A program made the translations under genes and the position numbers. From assembly GCA_964556565.1 (NCBI GenBank), contig CAZKWF010000002.1:41499-105498 (forward strand): a DNA stretch of 64,000 bases. Direction: 5' to 3'. The first letter of the stretch is position 1. Every line of letters begins with the position of its first letter. This DNA is from an uncultured Candidatus Bathyarchaeia archaeon (GTDB lineage: Archaea > Thermoproteota > Bathyarchaeia > Bathyarchaeales > Bathyarchaeaceae). The notes beneath the pieces are model-generated. The model was not told where the DNA came from. It searched no databases and saw nothing but the letters and a program-made list of their open reading frames with translations. Shown here in pieces: positions 4,821 to 44,598 of this stretch.

Positions 4821-5099
4821 TTATTTCGCTAAGGTGATTTCAATGGTGCTGACGTTTGTTGGCGAGCCACCCTCTTCAAATGGTGCCAATTGTTCTGTGC
4901 CGATGTCTATGTTTTTGACTTTTACATCTGGCAAGAACCTTCGTCTGCAGACTTCTACAACGTCAACAGCTCGGCTGATTGCTCTGCCTCTTGCCTTTAC
5001 GCTTATTTTGGTTGCTCCGCCGTGGAAGAGGGTTATGCAAGCCAGTACGTAGTTCATTACTGGCTTTCTTCCTATCAACACATCGGTTCTTTCTGACAT
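4821..5099 (-). CDS. albA: DNA/RNA-binding protein Alba
   Basis: 92 aa. [37 protein letters not shown] matches the Alba fold sequence. GGTGA lies just upstream of the ATG. Confidence 0.9.
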
Positions 5100-8412: not shown

Positions 8413-8763
8413 ATGAGTGTGGCAAGTGCGAAAACTGTGATCGGGTACATCATATCTGCTGTTCTTCTGCTTTTCGCCGTTATTTTCGCTCTAGCTTCAG
8501 CGTACGAGCCGATAAGATTAGTTACAAGCGCGTTTCTTTTTCTCGCAGGCTTTGGAATACTGTACTACATTAGAAAACAACAGCCTGTACAGATCACACA
8601 AAAACTTGAGGTTCCTGGAAAGGTCAAAGTTCAAACAATAAGATGCCCCAACTGCTCAGCTTCCTTGGACATAAGTCAAGCGCAAGTAGTAAAGGGCGTA
8701 CCATCGGTCAAGTGCTCCTATTGTGGGCACGTCTTCGAGGTAACCGAGGAACCAAAATGGTAA
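8413..8763 (+). CDS. small membrane protein (2 TM) with C-terminal CxxC...CxxC zinc ribbon
   Basis: Two hydrophobic helices, then RCPNCSASLD...KCSYCGHVFEV. Its stop overlaps the start of the next ORF (ATGGTAA). Confidence 0.5.
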   Translation: MSVASAKTVIGYIISAVLLLFAVIFALASAYEPIRLVTSAFLFLAGFGILYYIRKQQPVQITQKLEVPGKVKVQTIRCPNCSASLDISQAQVVKGVPSVKCSYCGHVFEVTEEPKW

Positions 8764-10382
8764 AAGTTCAACACCTGCTTGCAGCTTTGCTCACGATATT
8801 CATCTTCATGACTCTTGTTGGCGCTGTAACCGCACAAAGACAGTACCATCTTCAACATGAATGGGCAGAAATATGGATTAACCAGGATGGAACGATCGAT
8901 CTGCTGTACGACATAAGCATAACACTCGATTCGGGGGCCAATATCACCTACGTAAACGTTGGTCAACCCAGAAGTGACTTCACAATCGGAACAGCAATGG
9001 ACCAATATGACCACGCACTAACGACAACTGACGTAAGTGAAAGAGATGATTACAAAGTGCGCGTCAACCTCTACGCGCCCTTACCAGCAGGACAAACCAT
9101 AAGGTTCAACCTCACCACCAACGTTGCCCACATGATATGGCAAGACGAGGACAACCCTGGAAACGTGGGGATGCAGTTCATTCCATGTTGGTGGGACTAC
9201 GCCAGCCTACACGAACTTCATGTTTTGATTGTCCTGCCTCTAGGTGTGACTAACCAAACTGTAATATGCACCCCGGACTGGGAGAATGCCTACTACGATC
9301 CAGCTGAGGAGAATAGGCTTGTTTTGTATTGGGAGAGGCACAATCTGCAACCGGGCGAGAAGTTTCCATGTGGCGTGTCCTTCCCTAAAGAATACGTTCA
9401 ACATTATGATGTGCCCCAAAAAGATTGGGGGTGGATTCTCCCAGTTGTCGCATTTCTCTTCATTGCTTTCGGAGCTGGCATTATAGTCTACAAAAGGGTT
9501 CCGCTTAGAAAGTACGTAAATCCTAGTATGCGAATGGAAGCCTTGGGAATAAGACACGGTCTAACAGCTGTAGAAGCCTCCCACCTATTAGGAGTCCCGC
9601 CTACCAAGATCGTCACCGAGATGCTATATAGCCTGTTGATGAAGAAAGCCATCTGGGTCACAGCCACAACTCCAGCCCTGAAACTGAAGGTCATGGAACC
9701 GTTCAAAGACAAAACAGGAACTCCTGAAACACCTCTACGCTATTACGAGAGAAGCTTTATTGAAGCAGTAAAAAGGGACGGAACCCTAGGCGAAGAAAAA
9801 CTTGCAAAAACAGTTATGTTGCTACGCGACACCGTGGAAAAGAAGCTTCGTGGATATTGCCGAGGAGACACTATCACTTACTACAAGAAAGTTGTGGGAG
9901 AAGCATGGGGACAAGTGGAAAAGGCAGGTACCCCCGAACTTGCGTCCAAGGCTTACGACGAAAATCTTCTCTGGCTTCTCCTCCACGAAGGCTTCAGATC
10001 TAGAACCGAAGACGTTTTCCACGAAAAAATGTTTGAACCGGGAATAGGCTGGTGGTGGTACTGGTACGGCTACACCTCTTATAACCCTCATCCAACCTAC
10101 AAACCAAGCCCAACAACAACCCAGCCGAAATCGCCCCCAACCATTCCAGGCGCGGACTTCGCCAACAACATTGCAACATCTGTTGAAAAAACCGCCAATA
10201 ACATAGTTGCAAACGTGGAGAAATTTGCGAACTCCATAGTCCCAGCACCACCCCCATCCGCAAAAACATCTAAAGCACCAGCACACCACAAGTCTAATTG
10301 TGCCTGTGCGTGTGCTGCATGCGCGTGCGTGTGTGCATGTGTTTCCTGTGCGTGTGCTTGTGCCTCAGGAGGCGTAGGTTGA
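8757..10382 (+). CDS. large membrane protein (DUF2207-like layout) ending in a (Cys-Ala)n tail
   Basis: Start at ATG 8757, preceded by GAGGA. Signal/TM N-terminus, an extracytoplasmic domain and a central TM helix. The cytoplasmic part carries a WWWYWYGY patch, ANNIxxxVEK repeats and the terminal CACACAACACVCACVSCACACASGGVG. Confidence 0.6.
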   Translation: MVKVQHLLAALLTIFIFMTLVGAVTAQRQYHLQHEWAEIWINQDGTIDLLYDISITLDSGANITYVNVGQPRSDFTIGTAMDQYDHALTTTDVSERDDYKVRVNLYAPLPAGQTIRFNLTTNVAHMIWQDEDNPGNVGMQFIPCWWDYASLHELHVLIVLPLGVTNQTVICTPDWENAYYDPAEENRLVLYWERHNLQPGEKFPCGVSFPKEYVQHYDVPQKDWGWILPVVAFLFIAFGAGIIVYKRVPLRKYVNPSMRMEALGIRHGLTAVEASHLLGVPPTKIVTEMLYSLLMKKAIWVTATTPALKLKVMEPFKDKTGTPETPLRYYERSFIEAVKRDGTLGEEKLAKTVMLLRDTVEKKLRGYCRGDTITYYKKVVGEAWGQVEKAGTPELASKAYDENLLWLLLHEGFRSRTEDVFHEKMFEPGIGWWWYWYGYTSYNPHPTYKPSPTTTQPKSPPTIPGADFANNIATSVEKTANNIVANVEKFANSIVPAPPPSAKTSKAPAHHKSNCACACAACACVCACVSCACACASGGVG

Positions 10383-10389
10383 AGGAGAA

Positions 10390-11754
10390 ATGATCGTGGG
10401 TATTCTAAGAAAAGTGAAAAGTGTAGTTGGCAAGGCTTCGAAGACTCCAGTTGGGCTATACTCGTATCGTGGTAAGGGAAAATTCGCTGGTCTAGCGCTT
10501 CAACTTCGTGTGGAGGCAAGCGGTGAAGGCTTGCTTGTCATTAACGCGAACACTGTTCTGTATCTGAACGAAACTGCAACAGCTCATGCGTACTTCTTCA
10601 TGCAAGGTATGCTGACAGAAGAAGCTGTGAAGAAAATTAGAAGACTTTACCGAGTTGAGGAGAAAACTGCTCGTAGAGACCATGAACAGATCATTTACAC
10701 AATCAGCACACTTGCTGAGACAGAGGAGGTCTGCCCTGTATCATTCCTTGATGTGGAGCAGGCTGAACCATTCACACAGGAACTAGCTGCCCCAATACGT
10801 ATGGACCTAGCCTTAACGTTTAGGTGCCAAAACGATTGTGTTCACTGTTATACTGGTGGGCCACACAAGACGCCTGAACTAACTACTGACCAGTGGAAAA
10901 AGGTGATGGATCGACTCAAGAAAATAGGCGTTTTCATATTTACATTCACTGGCGGTGAACCAACCCTTCGTGAAGACTTGCCAGAACTTCTGCAGTACGC
11001 ACAGGAAAAGGGAATTGTAACAGGTCTCATCACAAATGGACGTAGGTTAAAAGATAAAAAGTACGTGAAGAGGCTCGTGAATGTAGGGTTGGACTTCATA
11101 CAGATCACGCTTGAGTCGCATGATCCCACGATACATGATTCAATTACGTCCGTGAAGGGAAGTTGGCGAGAGACTGTGGAAGGGATCAAGAACGTAATCC
11201 CCACGCCGATTTACACTACGACAAACACGACCCTCAACAAGTACAATGCGAATAGTTTTATTGAAACCATAAGGTTTCTGCATGGCCTAGGGCTAAAGGT
11301 TTTCGGATGTAACAGCTTGATCTACTCTGGTAGCGCTCCATCAGTAGCCAACGAGTTTGCTCTAACAATCGATGAGTTGAGAAGCCTGTTGCCCAAGATT
11401 CTGATCAAAGCCAATGAACAGGGAATGAAGTTCATGTGGTACACGCCGACTCAATACTGTCAACTTGACCCCGTTAGCTTGGGACTAGGCGTGAAGTCGT
11501 GCACTGCTGCGAGAGTGAACATGTGTGTAGGACCTGAAGGCCAAGTTTACCCATGTCAGAGCTATTTCGAAAGCGTAGGCAATATCCTCAAAGACAGTTG
11601 GAAAAAAATCTGGAATCATCCGCTCTCTCTGAGCCTAAGAGCCAGAAAATACGCCCCAGAAAAATGCAAGGAATGCCCACAACTACCTGTCTGCGGCGGA
11701 GGTTGCCCCTTAGAACTAAAAGAAACAAAATACATATGCGCCGAAACTCAATAA
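10390..11754 (+). CDS. radical SAM/SPASM-domain enzyme with PqqD-like N-terminal (RRE-like) domain
   Basis: CX3CX2C motif (CQNDCVHCY). C-terminal SPASM cysteines (CTAARVNMC..PC...CKECPQLPVCGGGCP). An N-terminal extension of about 130 aa has a PqqD-like pattern. Confidence 0.85.
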   Translation: MIVGILRKVKSVVGKASKTPVGLYSYRGKGKFAGLALQLRVEASGEGLLVINANTVLYLNETATAHAYFFMQGMLTEEAVKKIRRLYRVEEKTARRDHEQIIYTISTLAETEEVCPVSFLDVEQAEPFTQELAAPIRMDLALTFRCQNDCVHCYTGGPHKTPELTTDQWKKVMDRLKKIGVFIFTFTGGEPTLREDLPELLQYAQEKGIVTGLITNGRRLKDKKYVKRLVNVGLDFIQITLESHDPTIHDSITSVKGSWRETVEGIKNVIPTPIYTTTNTTLNKYNANSFIETIRFLHGLGLKVFGCNSLIYSGSAPSVANEFALTIDELRSLLPKILIKANEQGMKFMWYTPTQYCQLDPVSLGLGVKSCTAARVNMCVGPEGQVYPCQSYFESVGNILKDSWKKIWNHPLSLSLRARKYAPEKCKECPQLPVCGGGCPLELKETKYICAETQ

Positions 11755-18334: not shown

Positions 18335-19000
18335 ATGATCGACGAATATAAGCGCAAAGATTTGCACGAGGAGAGCACAGAAAAGAACGTGGAAGCGCCA
18401 ATAAGACGATTGTTCGCCTTCTTATTGGTAGCTCTCGGCATCACAGTCGCTACAATCATCGGTGCTTGGTACCTGTCCCAGCTGCCATTAATGGAGGGAA
18501 GCGCTGGCGAAGGGCACCAAATAATAATCTTCACCATATCTGATCTATACCCGACAGATCACCCTGCCGATGAACATCCAGGAACCTTAGCTGCAAATTT
18601 TTCTCTGACAGACCCAAACGGAATTTCTTCGTGGCTAAGTGACTTCCGAGGTAAGGTGGTTGTCATAGATTTCATGGCTACGTGGTGTGGACCATGCAGG
18701 CAACAGTTGCCCCACCTCAAGGTCATTTGGGAAAAAGAAGATTATAGTGACAAAATTGTTTTGATGTCTATTGATATTGATCCAACAGAATCTGCGGAGA
18801 CACTTAGGTCCTTTGCCCAAGGATTTCCGTATGCAACATGGATTTGGGCTAGGGATACAGCCAACTTAGGGCAGGCTTATCAGGTTGCGGGTATTCCCAA
18901 GACTGTCATAATAGATCAGGACGGCTACATCAGGTTTACACATACGGGTGTAACATATGTCTCAACTTTCATCGAAGAGATTGACCAACTGCTGGGTTAA
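18335..19000 (+). CDS. membrane-anchored thioredoxin-like (TlpA/redoxin) thiol-disulfide oxidoreductase
   Basis: N-terminal TM helix. WCGPC active site in a redoxin fold (VVIDFMATWCGPCRQQLP). Confidence 0.75.
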   Translation: MIDEYKRKDLHEESTEKNVEAPIRRLFAFLLVALGITVATIIGAWYLSQLPLMEGSAGEGHQIIIFTISDLYPTDHPADEHPGTLAANFSLTDPNGISSWLSDFRGKVVVIDFMATWCGPCRQQLPHLKVIWEKEDYSDKIVLMSIDIDPTESAETLRSFAQGFPYATWIWARDTANLGQAYQVAGIPKTVIIDQDGYIRFTHTGVTYVSTFIEEIDQLLG

Positions 19001-19024
19001 GACAGCTGATAATGCATTCTTTTT

Positions 19025-19047
19025 GCGTGCACGTGTGCATGCGCATG
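19025..19047. repeat. 23-nt perfectly alternating purine-pyrimidine tract (GCGTGCACGTGTGCATGCGCATG)
   Basis: Read directly. Lies 25 nt after the redoxin stop, preceded by a T5 run. Related motifs occur at 37764, 42327, 43176, 34632, 24517 and 19903. Confidence 0.6.
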
Positions 19048-19077: not shown

Positions 19078-19752
19078 GTGATATCATTGGCTCTTGATCT
19101 ATCGGGGTTGACACTCATTTTTACTGCTGGAGCCTTGGCACTTCTCTCTCCATGTGGTTTCCCGATGCTTCCGGGTTACATATCATACTACATCGGAGCA
19201 AAGGCTTCCTTAGAAAAAGCGGTTTTCGGTGGAGTCGCATGCACATTAGGTCTTCTCACAGTGTTTTCCACAATTGGTGTTGTCGTCTCCACACTTGGCA
19301 GTTTCGTATCCCAGCATATACCATTTCTCGAACTTGTAGCAGGTGTAATTGTGATTTTTATGGGCATCTGCATGATCGTTGAAATTAGGTTTCCAACATT
19401 CTTTACAATATCAAGAGCCCCAAAACAAAGAGGTCTCATAGGCGTTTTCCTTTATGGTGTGGCTTATGGCTTAGCCACATTGGGCTGTTCAGCTCCGATA
19501 TTTTTTTCCATTCTCTTCTATGCAATTGCCGCAGGCGGACTTCTCTACGGTATGATAACGTTCTTCGTTTATGCCATCGGTATGGGACTCCCGATAATCA
19601 TAACTACCATCCTCGTAGCCAAGGCTAAGAAGTTTATGCTTAAAAGAATCGTGAAGATGATGCCGTGGTTCCAAAAGATCAGTGGCATAGTCCTTATCAT
19701 AATAGGAATCTACTTGATCTACTTCTACTACATGTCGTTTTATGCTGTGTGA
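19078..19752 (+). CDS. ccdA: cytochrome c biogenesis/thiol-disulfide transporter CcdA (DsbD-beta family)
   Basis: Six TM helices. Conserved LSPCGFPMLPGY and a second Cys in GCSAPIF. Confidence 0.8.
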   Translation: MISLALDLSGLTLIFTAGALALLSPCGFPMLPGYISYYIGAKASLEKAVFGGVACTLGLLTVFSTIGVVVSTLGSFVSQHIPFLELVAGVIVIFMGICMIVEIRFPTFFTISRAPKQRGLIGVFLYGVAYGLATLGCSAPIFFSILFYAIAAGGLLYGMITFFVYAIGMGLPIIITTILVAKAKKFMLKRIVKMMPWFQKISGIVLIIIGIYLIYFYYMSFYAV

Positions 19753-37751: not shown

Positions 37752-37870
37752 GCACAAGAAAATCATGTGTGCACATGGGTTAAATCGAGTTGCACATAAG
37801 AAGGTTCGTGGTTTTTCTTATTTTGCTAATGAATGTATTTTATTGAAGCCTAAAACAGAAAAGGAGAGAA

Positions 37871-42313: not shown

Positions 42314-42505
42314 TGCACTGAGGCCTTACACATGTGCATGTGCGAAGTGATCTACATAGGAGAGAGAGTCAGAGATGGGTATACATACATCTAGAGTAGG
42401 GACTTGGGCGTGCGTGACAGTTTCTACGTAATCTACTATGAGTCAAATAGGATTCTAGTGGGTTTTTTATTATCAGATTAGCTGGGACTTGTCATGGAAC
42501 AATGC

Positions 42506-43175: not shown

Positions 43176-43191
43176 CGTATGCATGCATACG
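43176..43191. repeat. perfect 16-nt palindrome CGTATGCATGCATACG between convergent genes
   Basis: Read directly. Abuts the stop codon of the 43192-44598 gene. Belongs to the alternating Pu-Py motif family. Confidence 0.6.
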
Positions 43192-44598
43192 CTAGTTTGC
43201 TGTTTTCTCTCTTTTGATGATTTCTCTTGCAGCAATAACACCTGAAGCAGAGGCTTGAACAAGTCCTCTCGTTACTCCCGCCCCATCGCCTATAGTAAAC
43301 AAATTATGAATCTTCGTCTCCAAACAGTCGCTCAGCTGAAGCTTCGTAGAATAGAATTTCACTTCCACGCCGTACAGCAACGTGTGTTTCGAGTTCACTC
43401 CCGGCGCAATTTGATCCAAGGCTTGAAGCATTTCACGAATGTCCGCTAGGTGGCGGTAGGGTATGACGAAGCTGAGGTCTCCTGGCGTGGCGTTCTTTAA
43501 TGTCGGAACAACTACGCTTCTTTTCATTCTCTCCTCGGTTGATCGCCGCCCAACTTGAAGATCGCCCAGTCTCTGAACGATCACGCCCCCGCTGAGAAGA
43601 TTCGTGAGCCTTGCAAGATACTTCCCGTACGCAATTGGTTCTCTGAAGGGCTCGGTGAAAGACGTGCTAACGAGGATAGCGAAGTTGGTGTTTCCTGTCT
43701 TCCTCTCCGCATAGCTCTGACCATTCACTGTTAAAATGCCTTCATAAGATTCCGCGATGACTTCGCCCTCAGGTGCAACACAGAAAGTCCTCACCTGATC
43801 ATCGAAACACTTTGAATAATAGATAAACTTGGGCTCATACAACACGTTTGTCAGCTCCGCCATAACCGACGCCAAAACTTCAACCCTAATGCCCACATCG
43901 ACAGGATTGTTCAACGTTTTTAGGCCCAACGACTGAGCCTCGCACTTCAACCATTCAGCCCCAATTCTACCAGGTGCCACAATAACGTATCTTCCAAGAA
44001 TCTTTTCGCCCTTAACCGTCTCCACACCCTCAACTTTGCCTCCTTTTACCAACAGCCCTTTCACTTCGGTTCTAGTTCGAACCCTAACCCTGTCGTTCAA
44101 AAACCTACGCAACTTGTGAAGAGTGTCGGCGCAATTCTCGGTGCCCATGTGACGAATTTTTTGCTGAACAAGTTTTAAGCCAACAAGGGATGCTTTTCGC
44201 TCGATCTCGTCGATTTTGTCAGGATCAACCCCATAAAGATCCTTGGGGGCCCCAAATTTCAAGTAAATGTTATCCACGTAGTCTATAAGCCCTTCCAGCT
44301 CTTTCTCAGCACGATAATCGGTGAGCCATCCACCAACTCCAGTGGACAAGGTTAGTTTCCCATCGCTGAACGCTCCCGCGCCACCCCAACCAGACAAGAG
44401 CACAGAAGGGTCAGGGTGCACTCGCCCCAAGCCTTTATCTGCAGGACGCTTGCGCTGGTCAATGTCGGGTCCCTTGTCCAAAATAAGGACGTTCAATTTT
44501 GTGTTCTCGGTCAGCTCGAACGCGGAGAATATTCCCGCTGGGCCAGCGCCTACAATTATTACGTCGAATTTCAACTGGAAATCCCTCGAAGACCACAA
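43192..44598 (-). CDS. FAD-dependent oxidoreductase (COG2509-like)
   Basis: Rossmann motif FDVIIVGAGPAGIFSAFEL and C-terminal GDGAGVTRG. Confidence 0.75.
   Translation of the reverse strand: MWSSRDFQLKFDVIIVGAGPAGIFSAFELTENTKLNVLILDKGPDIDQRKRPADKGLGRVHPDPSVLLSGWGGAGAFSDGKLTLSTGVGGWLTDYRAEKELEGLIDYVDNIYLKFGAPKDLYGVDPDKIDEIERKASLVGLKLVQQKIRHMGTENCADTLHKLRRFLNDRVRVRTRTEVKGLLVKGGKVEGVETVKGEKILGRYVIVAPGRIGAEWLKCEAQSLGLKTLNNPVDVGIRVEVLASVMAELTNVLYEPKFIYYSKCFDDQVRTFCVAPEGEVIAESYEGILTVNGQSYAERKTGNTNFAILVSTSFTEPFREPIAYGKYLARLTNLLSGGVIVQRLGDLQVGRRSTEERMKRSVVVPTLKNATPGDLSFVIPYRHLADIREMLQALDQIAPGVNSKHTLLYGVEVKFYSTKLQLSDCLETKIHNLFTIGDGAGVTRGLVQASASGVIAAREIIKREKTAN

Follow-up and report, generated by a model that had tools for sequence, protein, structure and literature searches.

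A 541-residue archaeal membrane protein ends in a tail in which cysteine alternates with alanine or valine, and we propose that this tail is acted on by a radical-SAM/SPASM enzyme encoded directly behind it. Together with the gene of a small zinc-ribbon protein, the two genes form a module of three translationally coupled genes that is conserved in Archaea and Bacteria. The explanation that we consider best, and rather probable, is that the tail DNA is ordinary coding DNA, that the Cys-Ala/Val tail lies in the cytoplasm, and that it serves as the substrate of the enzyme. The strict conservation of the tail and the near-constant presence of a radical-SAM gene downstream make it probable that the tail is an enzyme substrate and not an unstable DNA repeat. 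Throughout, the window is the whole 64,000-nt stretch of DNA that was analysed.

Why should such a tail matter? Radical-SAM enzymes acting on Cys-rich peptides are a main source of new peptide chemistry. To our knowledge, nearly all known substrates of these enzymes are small secreted peptides; a strictly alternating Cys-Ala substrate, carried by a large membrane protein, would constitute a new substrate class. The module is uncurated, spans both prokaryotic domains and can be tested directly, and the Bathyarchaeia are a lineage with almost no biochemistry.

Three coupled genes in Archaea and Bacteria

The gene for the small membrane protein is the first of the module, and its stop codon overlaps the start codon of the tail gene (ATGGTGA). 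The tail gene in turn ends 8 nt before the start codon of the enzyme gene, which lies behind an AGGAG (Table 1). This gene order, in which a Cys-containing candidate substrate adjoins the enzyme, resembles that of a precursor followed by its maturase. How constant is it? A radical-SAM gene is found directly downstream of the tail gene in 72 of the 75 loci with enough sequence, and upstream of it in one more. Two divergent loci, L095 and L098, have no adjoining radical-SAM gene, each of them being either rearranged or near the end of its contig. The zinc-ribbon gene directly precedes the tail gene in 64 of 70 loci; one apparent cassette lacking it, L014, is uninformative since its upstream DNA is N-masked.

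The two helices of the small protein were located by hydropathy and its zinc ribbon by matches to Pfam Zn_ribbon_4 (E=2.6e-8) and NCBIfam MJ0042_CXXC (E=8.5e-8). Its EEPKW C-terminus is invariant, and its homologs encoded in front of the bacterial cassettes (E 1e-13 to 1e-21) invariably end in E-x-PKW. In these cassettes, from Chloroflexota/Anaerolineales and Zixibacteria, all three proteins are homologous to those of the window and the flanking genes are different.

Neither a protease nor an exporter or transporter is conserved in the archaeal or bacterial neighbourhoods, where a conserved metallochaperone and a linked sortase-like gene are likewise absent. A cluster with no conserved protease or exporter, and with a membrane protein of 541 aa as its candidate substrate, is not of the classical RiPP type. 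A methyltransferase was considered as a fourth component; it lies downstream in two bacterial loci and does not recur beside the archaeal cassettes, and the methyltransferase nearby in the window is an ordinary PCMT (E=5e-41). We therefore do not count a methyltransferase among the core genes. In the literature, the tail strings were found in no paper, and nothing relevant was found on DUF2207, ACGX, or Bathyarchaeota together with radical SAM.

Table 1. Features of the module and of the tail tract, in window coordinates
Feature	Position	Strand	Remarks
Small membrane protein, 116 aa	8413-8763	+	Two hydrophobic helices, putatively cytoplasmic zinc ribbon (aa 75-110), C-terminal EEPKW
Tail-bearing protein, 541 aa	8757-10382	+	Homologs back the start at 8757, not the longest ORF from 8643
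N-terminal signal or anchor helix	8757-8840	+	Precedes the beta-sandwich domain
Beta-sandwich domain, aa 29-210, predicted extracellular	8841-9386	+	AF2 pLDDT>90
Transmembrane helix, aa 224-247	9426-9497	+	AF2 helix; Kyte-Doolittle 2.56
Shadow ORF, 140 aa, His/Ala/Thr/Gln repeat	10097-10519	-	Mechanical ORF listing; not a gene
Pre-tail helix, aa 465-494, PGADFANNIATSVEKTANNIVANVEKFANSIV	10149-10238	+	AF2 helices 465-483 and 487-494
Cys-Ala tail, 22 codons	10299-10364	+	DNA TGTGCCTGTGCGTGTGCTGCATGCGCGTGCGTGTGTGCATGTGTTTCCTGTGCGTGTGCTTGTGCC; peptide CACACAACACVCACVSCACACA; proposed substrate ('core') region
14-nt direct repeat CCTGTGCGTGTGCT, copy 1	10303-10316	+	Repeat count in window
Perfect alternating Pu-Py run, 27 nt	10316-10342		Window DNA
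14-nt direct repeat CCTGTGCGTGTGCT, copy 2	10345-10358	+	Repeat count in window
SGGVG end and stop codon	10365-10382	+	Conserved; stop at 10380-10382; G538 and G539 invariant
Radical-SAM/SPASM enzyme, 454 aa	10390-11754	+	Pfam Radical_SAM E=2e-26, SPASM E=3e-10; proposed maturase
Putative N-terminal PqqD-like peptide-recognition (RRE-like) domain, aa 22-110	10453-10719	+	Pfam PqqD, AF2
CX3CX2C radical-SAM cluster motif, C146/C150/C153	10825-10848	+	Invariant in alignment
SPASM domain	11500-11739	+	PF13186 at aa 371-430, E=3.4e-10

A membrane protein with an invariant cysteine array

The tail-bearing protein has more than 1600 homologs, which fall into 539 representatives on 50% clustering; one entry, P0001, shows 100% identity to it over 541 aa. 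Searches of Pfam and NCBIfam returned no family at E<0.01, and in particular no NCBIfam peptide model. Foldseek comparison of the beta-sandwich ectodomain with the PDB retrieved the luminal domain of ribophorin I/OST1 (E 2e-11 to 2e-9) and the N-domain of M1 aminopeptidases (E ~3e-9). The predicted cytoplasmic domain gave nothing significant against the PDB or Pfam, its sole match being the Z-alpha winged helix of ADAR (E=0.68).

On which side of the membrane does the tail lie? The transmembrane helix is flanked by two K+R residues before versus three after it, and by three D+E residues before versus one after. Since K and R are more frequent on its C-terminal side, the region downstream is predicted to be cytoplasmic, and we infer a type-I topology with a cytoplasmic tail. 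This is the compartment in which radical-SAM enzymes work, a point in favour of the tail as a substrate. Some 20 residues before the tail begins lies a helix in which G465, A469 and F490 are invariant in archaeal and bacterial homologs; it is a candidate recognition ('leader-like') segment.

The tail itself contains 10 cysteines among its 22 residues, as the sequence-only reading had correctly translated it from 10299-10364, arranged as (CA)3-A-(C[AV])4-S-(CA)3. Across 14 genomic orthologs with 50-93% protein identity, all ten cysteines (10/10) are invariant, and pairwise comparison of the tail codons gives 969 synonymous and 146 non-synonymous differences; those of the second kind all fall at four A/V/S positions. 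Of 120 close homolog clusters, 118 have a tail of 22 aa, as do 76 of 84 loci, and every full-length homolog examined possesses the Cys array. A core of (C[AV])4-x-(CA)3-GG is invariant, including in bacterial homologs at ~28% identity. In these Chloroflexota and Zixibacteria the tail is shorter (CACACACAGCACACAGGGR), its array, which poly-Gly and GGGR flank, being only 13-17 residues long, and clades differ by one CA unit more or fewer in the first module of the array, with 3, 4 and 5 units in 11, 96 and 11 of 118, respectively. Two homologs, P0269 and P0294, have an internal array followed by a domain of ~88 aa; we rejected the idea that this C-terminal extension is a fused enzyme or a domain for recognition, as it gave no Pfam match and only 0.1% probability in hhalign against the radical-SAM alignment.

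Chance falls far short of accounting for the Cys array as a protein feature. Conservation and synonymous variation together show, at the level of sequence comparison, strong purifying selection acting on the protein. The sequence-only reading had allowed that the tail could be a selected CxC array, and the part of this hedge that concerns selection is borne out by the alignments. Furthermore, the residues between the cysteines are limited to A, V, S and G, which suggests that they have a role beyond spacing.

The enzyme and its probable substrate

The enzyme belongs by its domain content to the peptide-modifying type. The CX3CX2C motif of radical-SAM/SPASM peptide maturases is present with all three cysteines invariant (PF04055, E=2e-26), and the invariant cysteines of its SPASM domain (371, 379, 389, 426, 429, 435, 439 and 450) include a CX2CX5CX3C arrangement. 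At the N-terminus, Pfam PqqD matches aa 52-102 at a sub-threshold E=0.038; at the same position in bacterial orthologs that are 43-50% identical, the match reaches 5e-7 (above the gathering score), 1.8e-4 and 2.6e-4. The AF2 model, of moderate confidence (pLDDT 68), gives this putative domain four strands followed by three helices. Both this topology and the start of the SkfB alignment at aa 45 are consistent with a PqqD-like element. SkfB is the best match among solved structures (E=3e-20 by sequence over aa 45-426, 2e-15 by fold), and SuiB, PqqE and anSME come next. In NCBIfam, no family scores above its cut-off: the best is NirJ2, with 136 bits against a cut-off of 500, and all 25 listed matches, with NirJ2, MftC, PqqE, SkfB, AlbA and the ACGX system among the families considered, fall far under theirs.

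What might such an enzyme do here? The tail is probably its substrate. In the mechanism that we envisage, the recognition domain would dock on the conserved helix upstream of the tail, and 5'-deoxyadenosyl radical chemistry would modify the Cys/Ala/Val array while this is still attached to the membrane protein. Bridges from Cys sulfur to carbon, like those in the products of SkfB, AlbA and QhpD, would be the most probable chemistry, and the tail is thus perhaps cross-linked by thioethers; the outcome would be a RiPP-style modification of the full-length protein rather than a secreted peptide. Radical-SAM/SPASM enzymes place thioethers on Cys-rich peptides and also on a protein subunit, as QhpD does on QhpC (PMC10114670). 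As a counterpoint to thioethers, the close relatives of the window enzyme include the C-C cross-linkers PqqE and SuiB and the formylglycine-generating anSME. Counterpoints to the explanation as a whole are the sub-threshold PqqD match, the moderate confidence of the enzyme model, a second candidate substrate within the module (the invariant EEPKW end of the small protein), the two loci L095 and L098, and the lack of a conserved protease or exporter.

More tentatively, and with more doubt than confidence, we suggest a previously undescribed modification system common to Bathyarchaeia, Chloroflexota and Zixibacteria, in which the enzyme rebuilds or cross-links the tail of a ribophorin-like type-I protein and the zinc-ribbon protein is a third subunit. 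If this is true, the product would be tethered to the protein, for example as a poly-thioether ladder or as a peptide-derived cofactor that is redox-active or binds metal, and a membrane protein would acquire a permanent, organelle-like appendage from a RiPP-type pathway, with no natural product being secreted.

How does the module compare with known systems? The sactipeptide systems SkfB/SkfA and AlbA/SboA share with it an enzyme that has a PqqD-like domain, putative in the window enzyme, at its N-terminus and an auxiliary-cluster domain at its C-terminus, and a Cys-containing substrate encoded directly upstream, here a candidate one. However, SkfB is only ~21% identical to the window enzyme and has a twitch domain where the latter has a full SPASM domain, and the NCBIfam models for SkfB and AlbA score 86 and 80 bits against cut-offs of 300 and 850. 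Sactipeptide substrates are short leader-core peptides with spaced donor cysteines and distant acceptors, whereas the candidate here is an alternating Cys-Ala array at the end of a 541-aa membrane protein with no linked protease or exporter. Among SCIFF peptides and ranthipeptides (CteB, PapB) and in Haft's ACGX-repeat system, Cys-rich low-complexity targets are likewise paired with radical-SAM/SPASM enzymes, but those targets are small stand-alone peptides, unlike the tail protein, and the radical-SAM model of the ACGX system gives the window enzyme 68 bits against a cut-off of 400.

DUF2207 and ribophorin-I-like proteins resemble the tail protein in their signal peptide, beta-sandwich ectodomain, transmembrane helix, cytoplasmic region and low-complexity Gly-rich C-terminus, and the ectodomain fold of ribophorin I/OST1 matches that of the window protein. 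One source annotates the homolog P0068 as DUF2207. The window protein has no Pfam match to DUF2207 (PF09972) even at E<10, and the best match in the family is a weak one to the DUF2207 N-domain in the distant homolog P0309 (E=5.5e-5; 23.9 bits versus a gathering score of 24.4). We know of no description of a Cys-Ala array or a radical-SAM partner for DUF2207 proteins; the only functional study that we found in the DUF2207 literature concerns S. mutans SMU.243.

QhpD/QhpC offers a likeness of another kind, namely a radical-SAM/SPASM enzyme whose thioethers sit in a protein that stays functional and is not a secreted product (PMC10114670). In contrast to the tail protein, to which it is unrelated in sequence, QhpC is the small, periplasmic gamma subunit of quinohemoprotein amine dehydrogenase, with links from Cys to Asp/Glu and a quinone cofactor; the window enzyme, for its part, has no NCBIfam match above cut-off.

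Metallothionein-type arrays share the high Cys density and the Cys-x-Cys spacing. Could the tail then simply bind metal? We consider it unlikely, though worth weighing, that the tail stays unmodified and binds metal or iron-sulfur clusters as a CxC array of the metallothionein-like thiolate-cluster type, with the enzyme acting elsewhere, for instance on the EEPKW end, or just exchanging clusters with the tail. Ten invariant cysteines in CxC spacing would suit such an array, all of whose thiols would share one face if it formed beta-strands. The conservation of the EEPKW C-terminus across both domains favours action elsewhere, and conserved C-termini are typical radical-SAM targets, as in the mycofactocin and PQQ precursors. 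The window array nevertheless differs from the metallothionein type in being tethered to a large membrane protein, in its A/V/S/G spacers, themselves under constraint, and in its obligate linkage to a radical-SAM gene. Metal binding does not normally need a dedicated enzyme with a peptide-recognition domain, such as appears to be encoded here 8 nt downstream, adjoining the tail gene so regularly, and no metallochaperone or transporter is conserved nearby.

A role of the tail as a hydrophobic membrane anchor at the C-terminus, or as a sorting signal, rather than as a substrate is very improbable. Its best 19-residue window reaches a Kyte-Doolittle value of 2.25, equal to that of true transmembrane helices, and its composition of Cys, Ala, Val and Gly is uncharged. 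However, the bacterial tail is too short for a membrane-spanning helix, AF2 leaves the window tail disordered (pLDDT 31-39) with no helix, the array is internal in the two homologs with the C-terminal extension, and no sortase-like gene is linked.

The tail tract as DNA

Is the tract remarkable as DNA? The perfect alternating Pu-Py run within it was first given as 25 nt; the run exists and measures 27 nt, which makes it the longest in the window, and no run of at least 24 nt arose in 200 dinucleotide-preserving shuffles. We nevertheless regard it as a by-product of the coding sequence, since four consecutive purine-ending Ala/Val codons lie between TGY codons here, and since the equivalent run varies from 11 to 27 nt among the 14 orthologs, some having shrunk to 11-13 nt. 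The antisense frame that the sequence-only reading had pointed out at 10097-10519 does exist, as a mechanical shadow of the Cys-Ala frame; it overlaps the 3' end of the tail gene and the 5' end of the radical-SAM gene, and homologs strongly support both genes. Pu-Py alternation, the open antisense frame and the self-complementarity of the mRNA all follow mechanically from TGY-GCR/GTR codons; what is extraordinary is the peptide, and the DNA coding for it is ordinary.

That the tail is instead a Z-DNA- or slippage-prone repeat of strain-variable length, a contingency-type locus possibly recruited from intergenic Pu-Py motifs, is scarcely credible and largely refuted by the ortholog comparison. 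The length of the run, the variation by one CA unit among bacterial clades and one deletion allele speak for it. That allele, in contig L018 from the metagenome ERR507302, lacks exactly 42 nt, in frame, between the pair of 14-nt direct repeats, with the loss of one repeat spacing (CCTGTGCGTGTGCT occurs in exactly 2 copies in the window against 0 expected), and it is the sole hint of slippage. Against this stand the fixed length and Cys register of nearly all close homolog clusters, synonymous changes that disrupt the repeat and leave only 68% matches at period 6, and a Pu-Py run too variable in length to be conserved as DNA. The tract thus shows neither the near-perfect repetition nor the copy-number variation among close relatives that would mark a slippage-prone microsatellite. 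Variable tail length had been predicted from the sequence, and the homologs contradict it; the DNA-level inference more generally is not supported, because amino acids are conserved amid abundant synonymous variation, an outcome that the sequence-only reading had itself named as a refutation. As a DNA curiosity the finding would be ordinary. The sequence-only reading drew no link between the tail and the radical-SAM/SPASM gene 8 nt downstream of its gene.

The tail RNA folds at -24.7 kcal/mol (z=-2.5), and its hairpin is kept in 14 of 14 orthologs. We considered selection on mRNA structure and rejected it: none of the 21 pairs shows a compensatory change (0/21), and the hairpin is no evidence for a selected structure because UGY/GCR codons are self-complementary, with G-U wobble, and so dictate its pairs. 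The intergenic Pu-Py palindromes, when folded as hairpins, are of unremarkable stability (z -0.3 to +0.8).

Did the tail arise from such intergenic strings? Similar strings reported from non-coding DNA are indeed present and intergenic (19024-19047, 37764-37777 and 42327-42344), but their supposed relatedness to the tail does not hold. The longest k-mers that they have in common with it are just 9-10 nt (GTGTGCATG at 19033 and TGTGCATGTG at 42333), no better than matches to unrelated coding DNA. Local recruitment also fails on age: shared with bacterial homologs at ~28% identity, the tail is ancient, older than the split from them, and was not drawn from the intergenic strings of this genome. 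At 12 nt, the longest word that the tail shares with any part of the window is found at 10997, within the unrelated radical-SAM gene.

A cross-domain module with a Cys-Ala tail

The Cys-Ala tract marks an uncharacterised module, found in both Archaea and Bacteria, that joins a Cys-Ala tail to a radical-SAM/SPASM enzyme. Translation of 10299-10364 (TGTGCC TGTGCG TGTGCT GCATGC GCGTGC GTGTGT GCATGT GTTTCC TGTGCG TGTGCT TGTGCC) gives CACACAACACVCACVSCACACA, confirming that 10 of 22 residues are Cys; SGGVG follows, then a stop at 10380-10382. More than 1600 homologs of the tail protein were detected, mostly annotated as Bathyarchaeia or Bathyarchaeota, and 118 of 120 homolog clusters share a 22-aa tail whose 10 Cys keep one register, C[AV]CAC[AVH][ASTH]CAC[AV]CACVSCACACA[SG]GG.

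The enzyme gene starts 8 nt past the tail's stop and is preceded by AGGAG. Upstream, the gene for a small zinc-ribbon membrane protein overlaps the tail-protein start. The longest tail-protein ORF begins at 8643; homologs favor the ATG at 8757, whose overlap with the upstream stop (ATGGTGA) implies translational coupling. Among the archaeal loci listed, most likewise have a zinc-ribbon match that ends about 4 nt beyond the point where the tail-protein match starts. The order zinc-ribbon protein, tail protein, radical-SAM enzyme holds in all 13 reference-genome loci long enough to show it, while synteny of the flanking genes (L40e, FEN1, PCMT) is seen in the closest relatives only. The methyltransferase near the module in the window was rejected as a component, being an ordinary PCMT.

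In a survey of 98 loci, with the enzyme counted where 400 nt or more were available downstream, a radical-SAM gene lies directly downstream in 72 of 75 loci and a zinc-ribbon gene directly upstream in 64 of 70. The three loci lacking the downstream enzyme are L072, where it is upstream, and L095 and L098, which are rearranged or lie close to the end of a contig. The zinc-ribbon gene of L098 is divergent, with no enzyme gene within 2.9 kb; in L093 and L096 it lies downstream of the enzyme gene on the opposite strand. No protease or exporter was linked to the module.

An exhaustive representative search expanded the tail-protein family to 539 clusters. Those with 28-35% identity have shorter tails, typically of the form GGGG-CACACACAGCACACA-GGGR, and their named sources are Chloroflexota/Anaerolineae, Zixibacteria, and unclassified bacteria. 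Three bacterial neighborhoods (L015-L017) encode a 122-134-aa protein, a tail protein, and a radical-SAM/SPASM protein of about 455 aa, which are homologous to their window counterparts at E 1e-13 to 1e-21, 28-29% identity, and 43-50% identity, respectively. Invariant columns of the joint alignment include C524, C526, A527, C528, C531 through A536, G538, and G539 in the tail, and G465, A469, and F490 in the preceding helix. To the universal (CA)4-x-(CA)3 core, the bathyarchaeial tail adds a (CA)3-x module on its N-terminal side. The small protein's C-terminal E-x-PKW (EEPKW, EQPKW), invariant in archaeal and bacterial cassettes, could be a second target for radical-SAM modification or could serve in interactions. 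As far as gene neighborhoods and alignments go, these data show that the Cys-Ala array is genetically tied to a radical-SAM/SPASM enzyme and a zinc-ribbon membrane protein in both prokaryotic domains.

In L015 (8061-9018) and L017 (8138-8996), the cassette continues with genes for a class-I SAM methyltransferase and a 53-54-aa hydrophobic peptide; further on are a convergent MiaB-like radical-SAM gene and a prepilin peptidase gene. All four are possible lineage-specific accessory genes.

Positions of the module genes, their motifs and repeats, and the predicted regions of the tail protein
Feature	Position	Details
Small protein	8413-8763	116 aa; two hydrophobic helices and zinc ribbon
E-x-PKW end	8746-8760 (window); about 4990-5004 (L015)	also in L016, L017, L098
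Tail protein	8757-10382	541 aa; P0001 (homolog) 100% identical
14-nt direct repeat CCTGTGCGTGTGCT	10303-10316 and 10345-10358	2 copies vs 0 expected
Radical-SAM/SPASM enzyme	10390-11754	454 aa; Pfam PF04055 E=2e-26, PF13186 E=3e-10
N-terminal signal or anchor helix of tail protein		AF2
Beta-sandwich ectodomain, confident	aa 29-210	AF2
Single transmembrane helix	aa 224-247	AF2
Predicted cytoplasmic region, helical and winged-helix-like	aa 271-442	AF2
Conserved helix	aa 465-494	AF2
Disordered tail		AF2; pLDDT 31-39

The tail as a candidate substrate

What might the enzyme modify? It carries CX3CX2C (C146/150/153); toward the C terminus, another eight Cys are invariant, some of them spaced as CX2CX5CX3C. 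Its N-terminal domain, modeled by AF2 as strands followed by three helices, gives a weak PqqD match in the window protein (E=0.038), and bacterial orthologs match PqqD over the corresponding segment with E-values of 5e-7, 1.8e-4, and 2.6e-4; by sequence, it is a putative recognition-type domain. No NCBIfam cut-off was reached, the best score being that of NirJ2 (136 bits vs 500). The nearest solved structures are SkfB, SuiB, PqqE, and anSME, all peptide- or protein-modifying radical-SAM enzymes. SkfB, whose product contains a Cys-S to C-alpha thioether, matches in sequence (E=3e-20 over aa 45-426) and in fold (E=2e-15).

The AF2 model of the tail protein has a mean pLDDT of 80. By Foldseek, the fold of its ectodomain is similar to both the M1 aminopeptidase N-domain and the luminal domain of ribophorin I/OST1 (E 2e-11 to 1e-8). 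The window protein matches no Pfam or NCBIfam family, and one distant family member scores slightly under the DUF2207 threshold. Charges flanking the transmembrane helix suggest that the C-terminal half, and hence the tail, is cytoplasmic.

We consider it fairly probable that the tail is a substrate of the adjacent enzyme. Recognition would involve the conserved helix some 20 residues before the tail, and the membrane protein would keep the modification. Thioether bridges would be the likeliest chemistry, a guess prompted by the nearest relatives and by the Cys/Ala/Val composition, and one more apt to fail than to hold. Thioether formation inside a protein subunit is catalyzed by QhpD (PMC10114670). 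The module is best classed as a putative RiPP-like radical-SAM modification variant acting on a full-length membrane protein, and its interest would rise if the modification proved true. A literature search for the tail motif and the module found no paper containing or describing either.

A rather unlikely alternative is that the tail stays unmodified and binds metal or Fe-S clusters, while the enzyme works on another target, such as the small protein's EEPKW terminus. A hydrophobic C-terminal anchor, suggested by a Kyte-Doolittle score like that of a transmembrane segment, is very improbable: bacterial tails are too short, AF2 predicts no helix in the tail, and the Cys array is internal in P0269 (aa 541-659) and P0294 (aa 561-675), two divergent homologs from the representative search. 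There, a conserved domain of about 88 aa follows, with no Pfam match and no detectable relation to the enzyme or PqqD.

Codons, repeats, and folding of the tract

The sequence-only reading suggested a tract possibly prone to Z-DNA or slippage, with tail length that may vary between strains. Its perfect alternating purine-pyrimidine (Pu-Py) run exists but measures 27 nt (10316-10342) rather than 25; it is the window's longest, and 200 dinucleotide-preserving shuffles contained no run of at least 24 nt. The antisense ORF at 10097-10519 was also recovered. Since Cys codons (TGY) read Y-R-Y and Ala/Val codons (GCN/GTN) R-Y-N, a Cys-Ala/Val array alternates automatically when the third base of the Ala/Val codon is a purine, and the 27-nt run is four consecutive such codons. 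The longest run within the equivalent 66 nt varies from 11 to 27 nt among 14 genomic orthologs; therefore, alternation per se is not conserved. Tandem Repeats Finder reported only an imperfect period-6 repeat (68% matches).

Codons were compared among 14 reference-genome loci with 50-93% protein identity. All 14 encode Cys at each of the Cys codon positions, with TGT and TGC, and likewise all GCN/GTN codons, interchangeable. Pairwise differences within the tail comprise 969 synonymous and 146 non-synonymous changes, the latter limited to positions 2, 6, 7, and 11 and to A/V/S exchanges. Complete tails from genomes and metagenomes are 22 aa long in 76 of 84 cases, and 83 retain the core (C[AV])4-x(1-2)-CACACA. 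Invariant Cys with abundant synonymous variation is the result that the sequence-only reading had itself named as refuting, and, bar one deletion allele, it largely overturns a DNA-level explanation; as read from these codons, the comparison shows an array kept by protein-level selection.

The deletion allele, the only one among the 120 clusters, is in L018 (an ENA contig; protein P0015), which encodes CACACACASGGVG, a tail reduced to 4 Cys. Alignment of L018 2459-2500 against 10299-10382 gives an exact 42-nt in-frame deletion between both copies of the direct repeat CCTGTGCGTGTGCT. It has the look of slippage or recombination, or of a rare artefact of assembly. First-module CA units in the bacterial branch (n=118) number 3 in 11 cases, 4 in 96, and 5 in 11, differing from clade to clade and not between close relatives. 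Units are therefore gained and lost over evolutionary time and not at strain level, and the L018 allele is the sole hint of slippage. Although that deletion bears the signature of slippage or recombination, a slippage or Z-DNA locus is the most improbable account of a tail so constant in length and Cys register.

The tail mRNA (10299-10364) forms a hairpin of -24.7 kcal/mol (z=-2.5) directly 5' of the ribosome-binding site for the enzyme. Pairing is kept in 14/14 orthologs with compensatory changes at 0/21 pairs, because UGY and GCR are self-complementary with wobble. The hairpin is probably a coding by-product; it could influence coupling of enzyme translation.

Intergenic alternating strings

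The strings likened to the tail are present and intergenic (19024-19047, 37764-37777, and 42327-42344); further alternating strings occur at 43176-43192, 23720, 24518, 42379, and 63921, and the set is partly palindromic. The window holds an excess of Pu-Py runs: 17 reach 12 nt or more (5.2±2.1 in shuffles) and 8 reach 14 nt or more (1.1 in shuffles). They are concentrated in intergenic DNA, with 8 of the 17 there against about 18% of the sequence. Their relatedness to the tail did not hold up: common words are just 9-10 nt (e.g., GTGTGCATG), and the tail's longest shared word, of 12 nt, lies in unrelated coding DNA. Nor was the tail recruited from this genome's intergenic motifs, as had been proposed, since bacterial homologs at about 28% identity also carry it.

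The intergenic strings may be protein-binding or 3'-end signals; as RNA hairpins, their palindromes have no unusual stability (z -0.3 to +0.8). Several strings lie 10-25 nt past stop codons. Sites include the 3' end of a minus-strand gene (43192-44598), positions after the acyl-CoA dehydrogenase and ribonucleotide reductase genes, and a TlpA-like thioredoxin/CcdA spacer. In this spacer, a 24-nt string separates genes recognized by ORF-translation inspection only, encoding a TlpA-like membrane thioredoxin (18335-19000) and a CcdA/DsbD-like thiol-reductant transporter (19078-19752).
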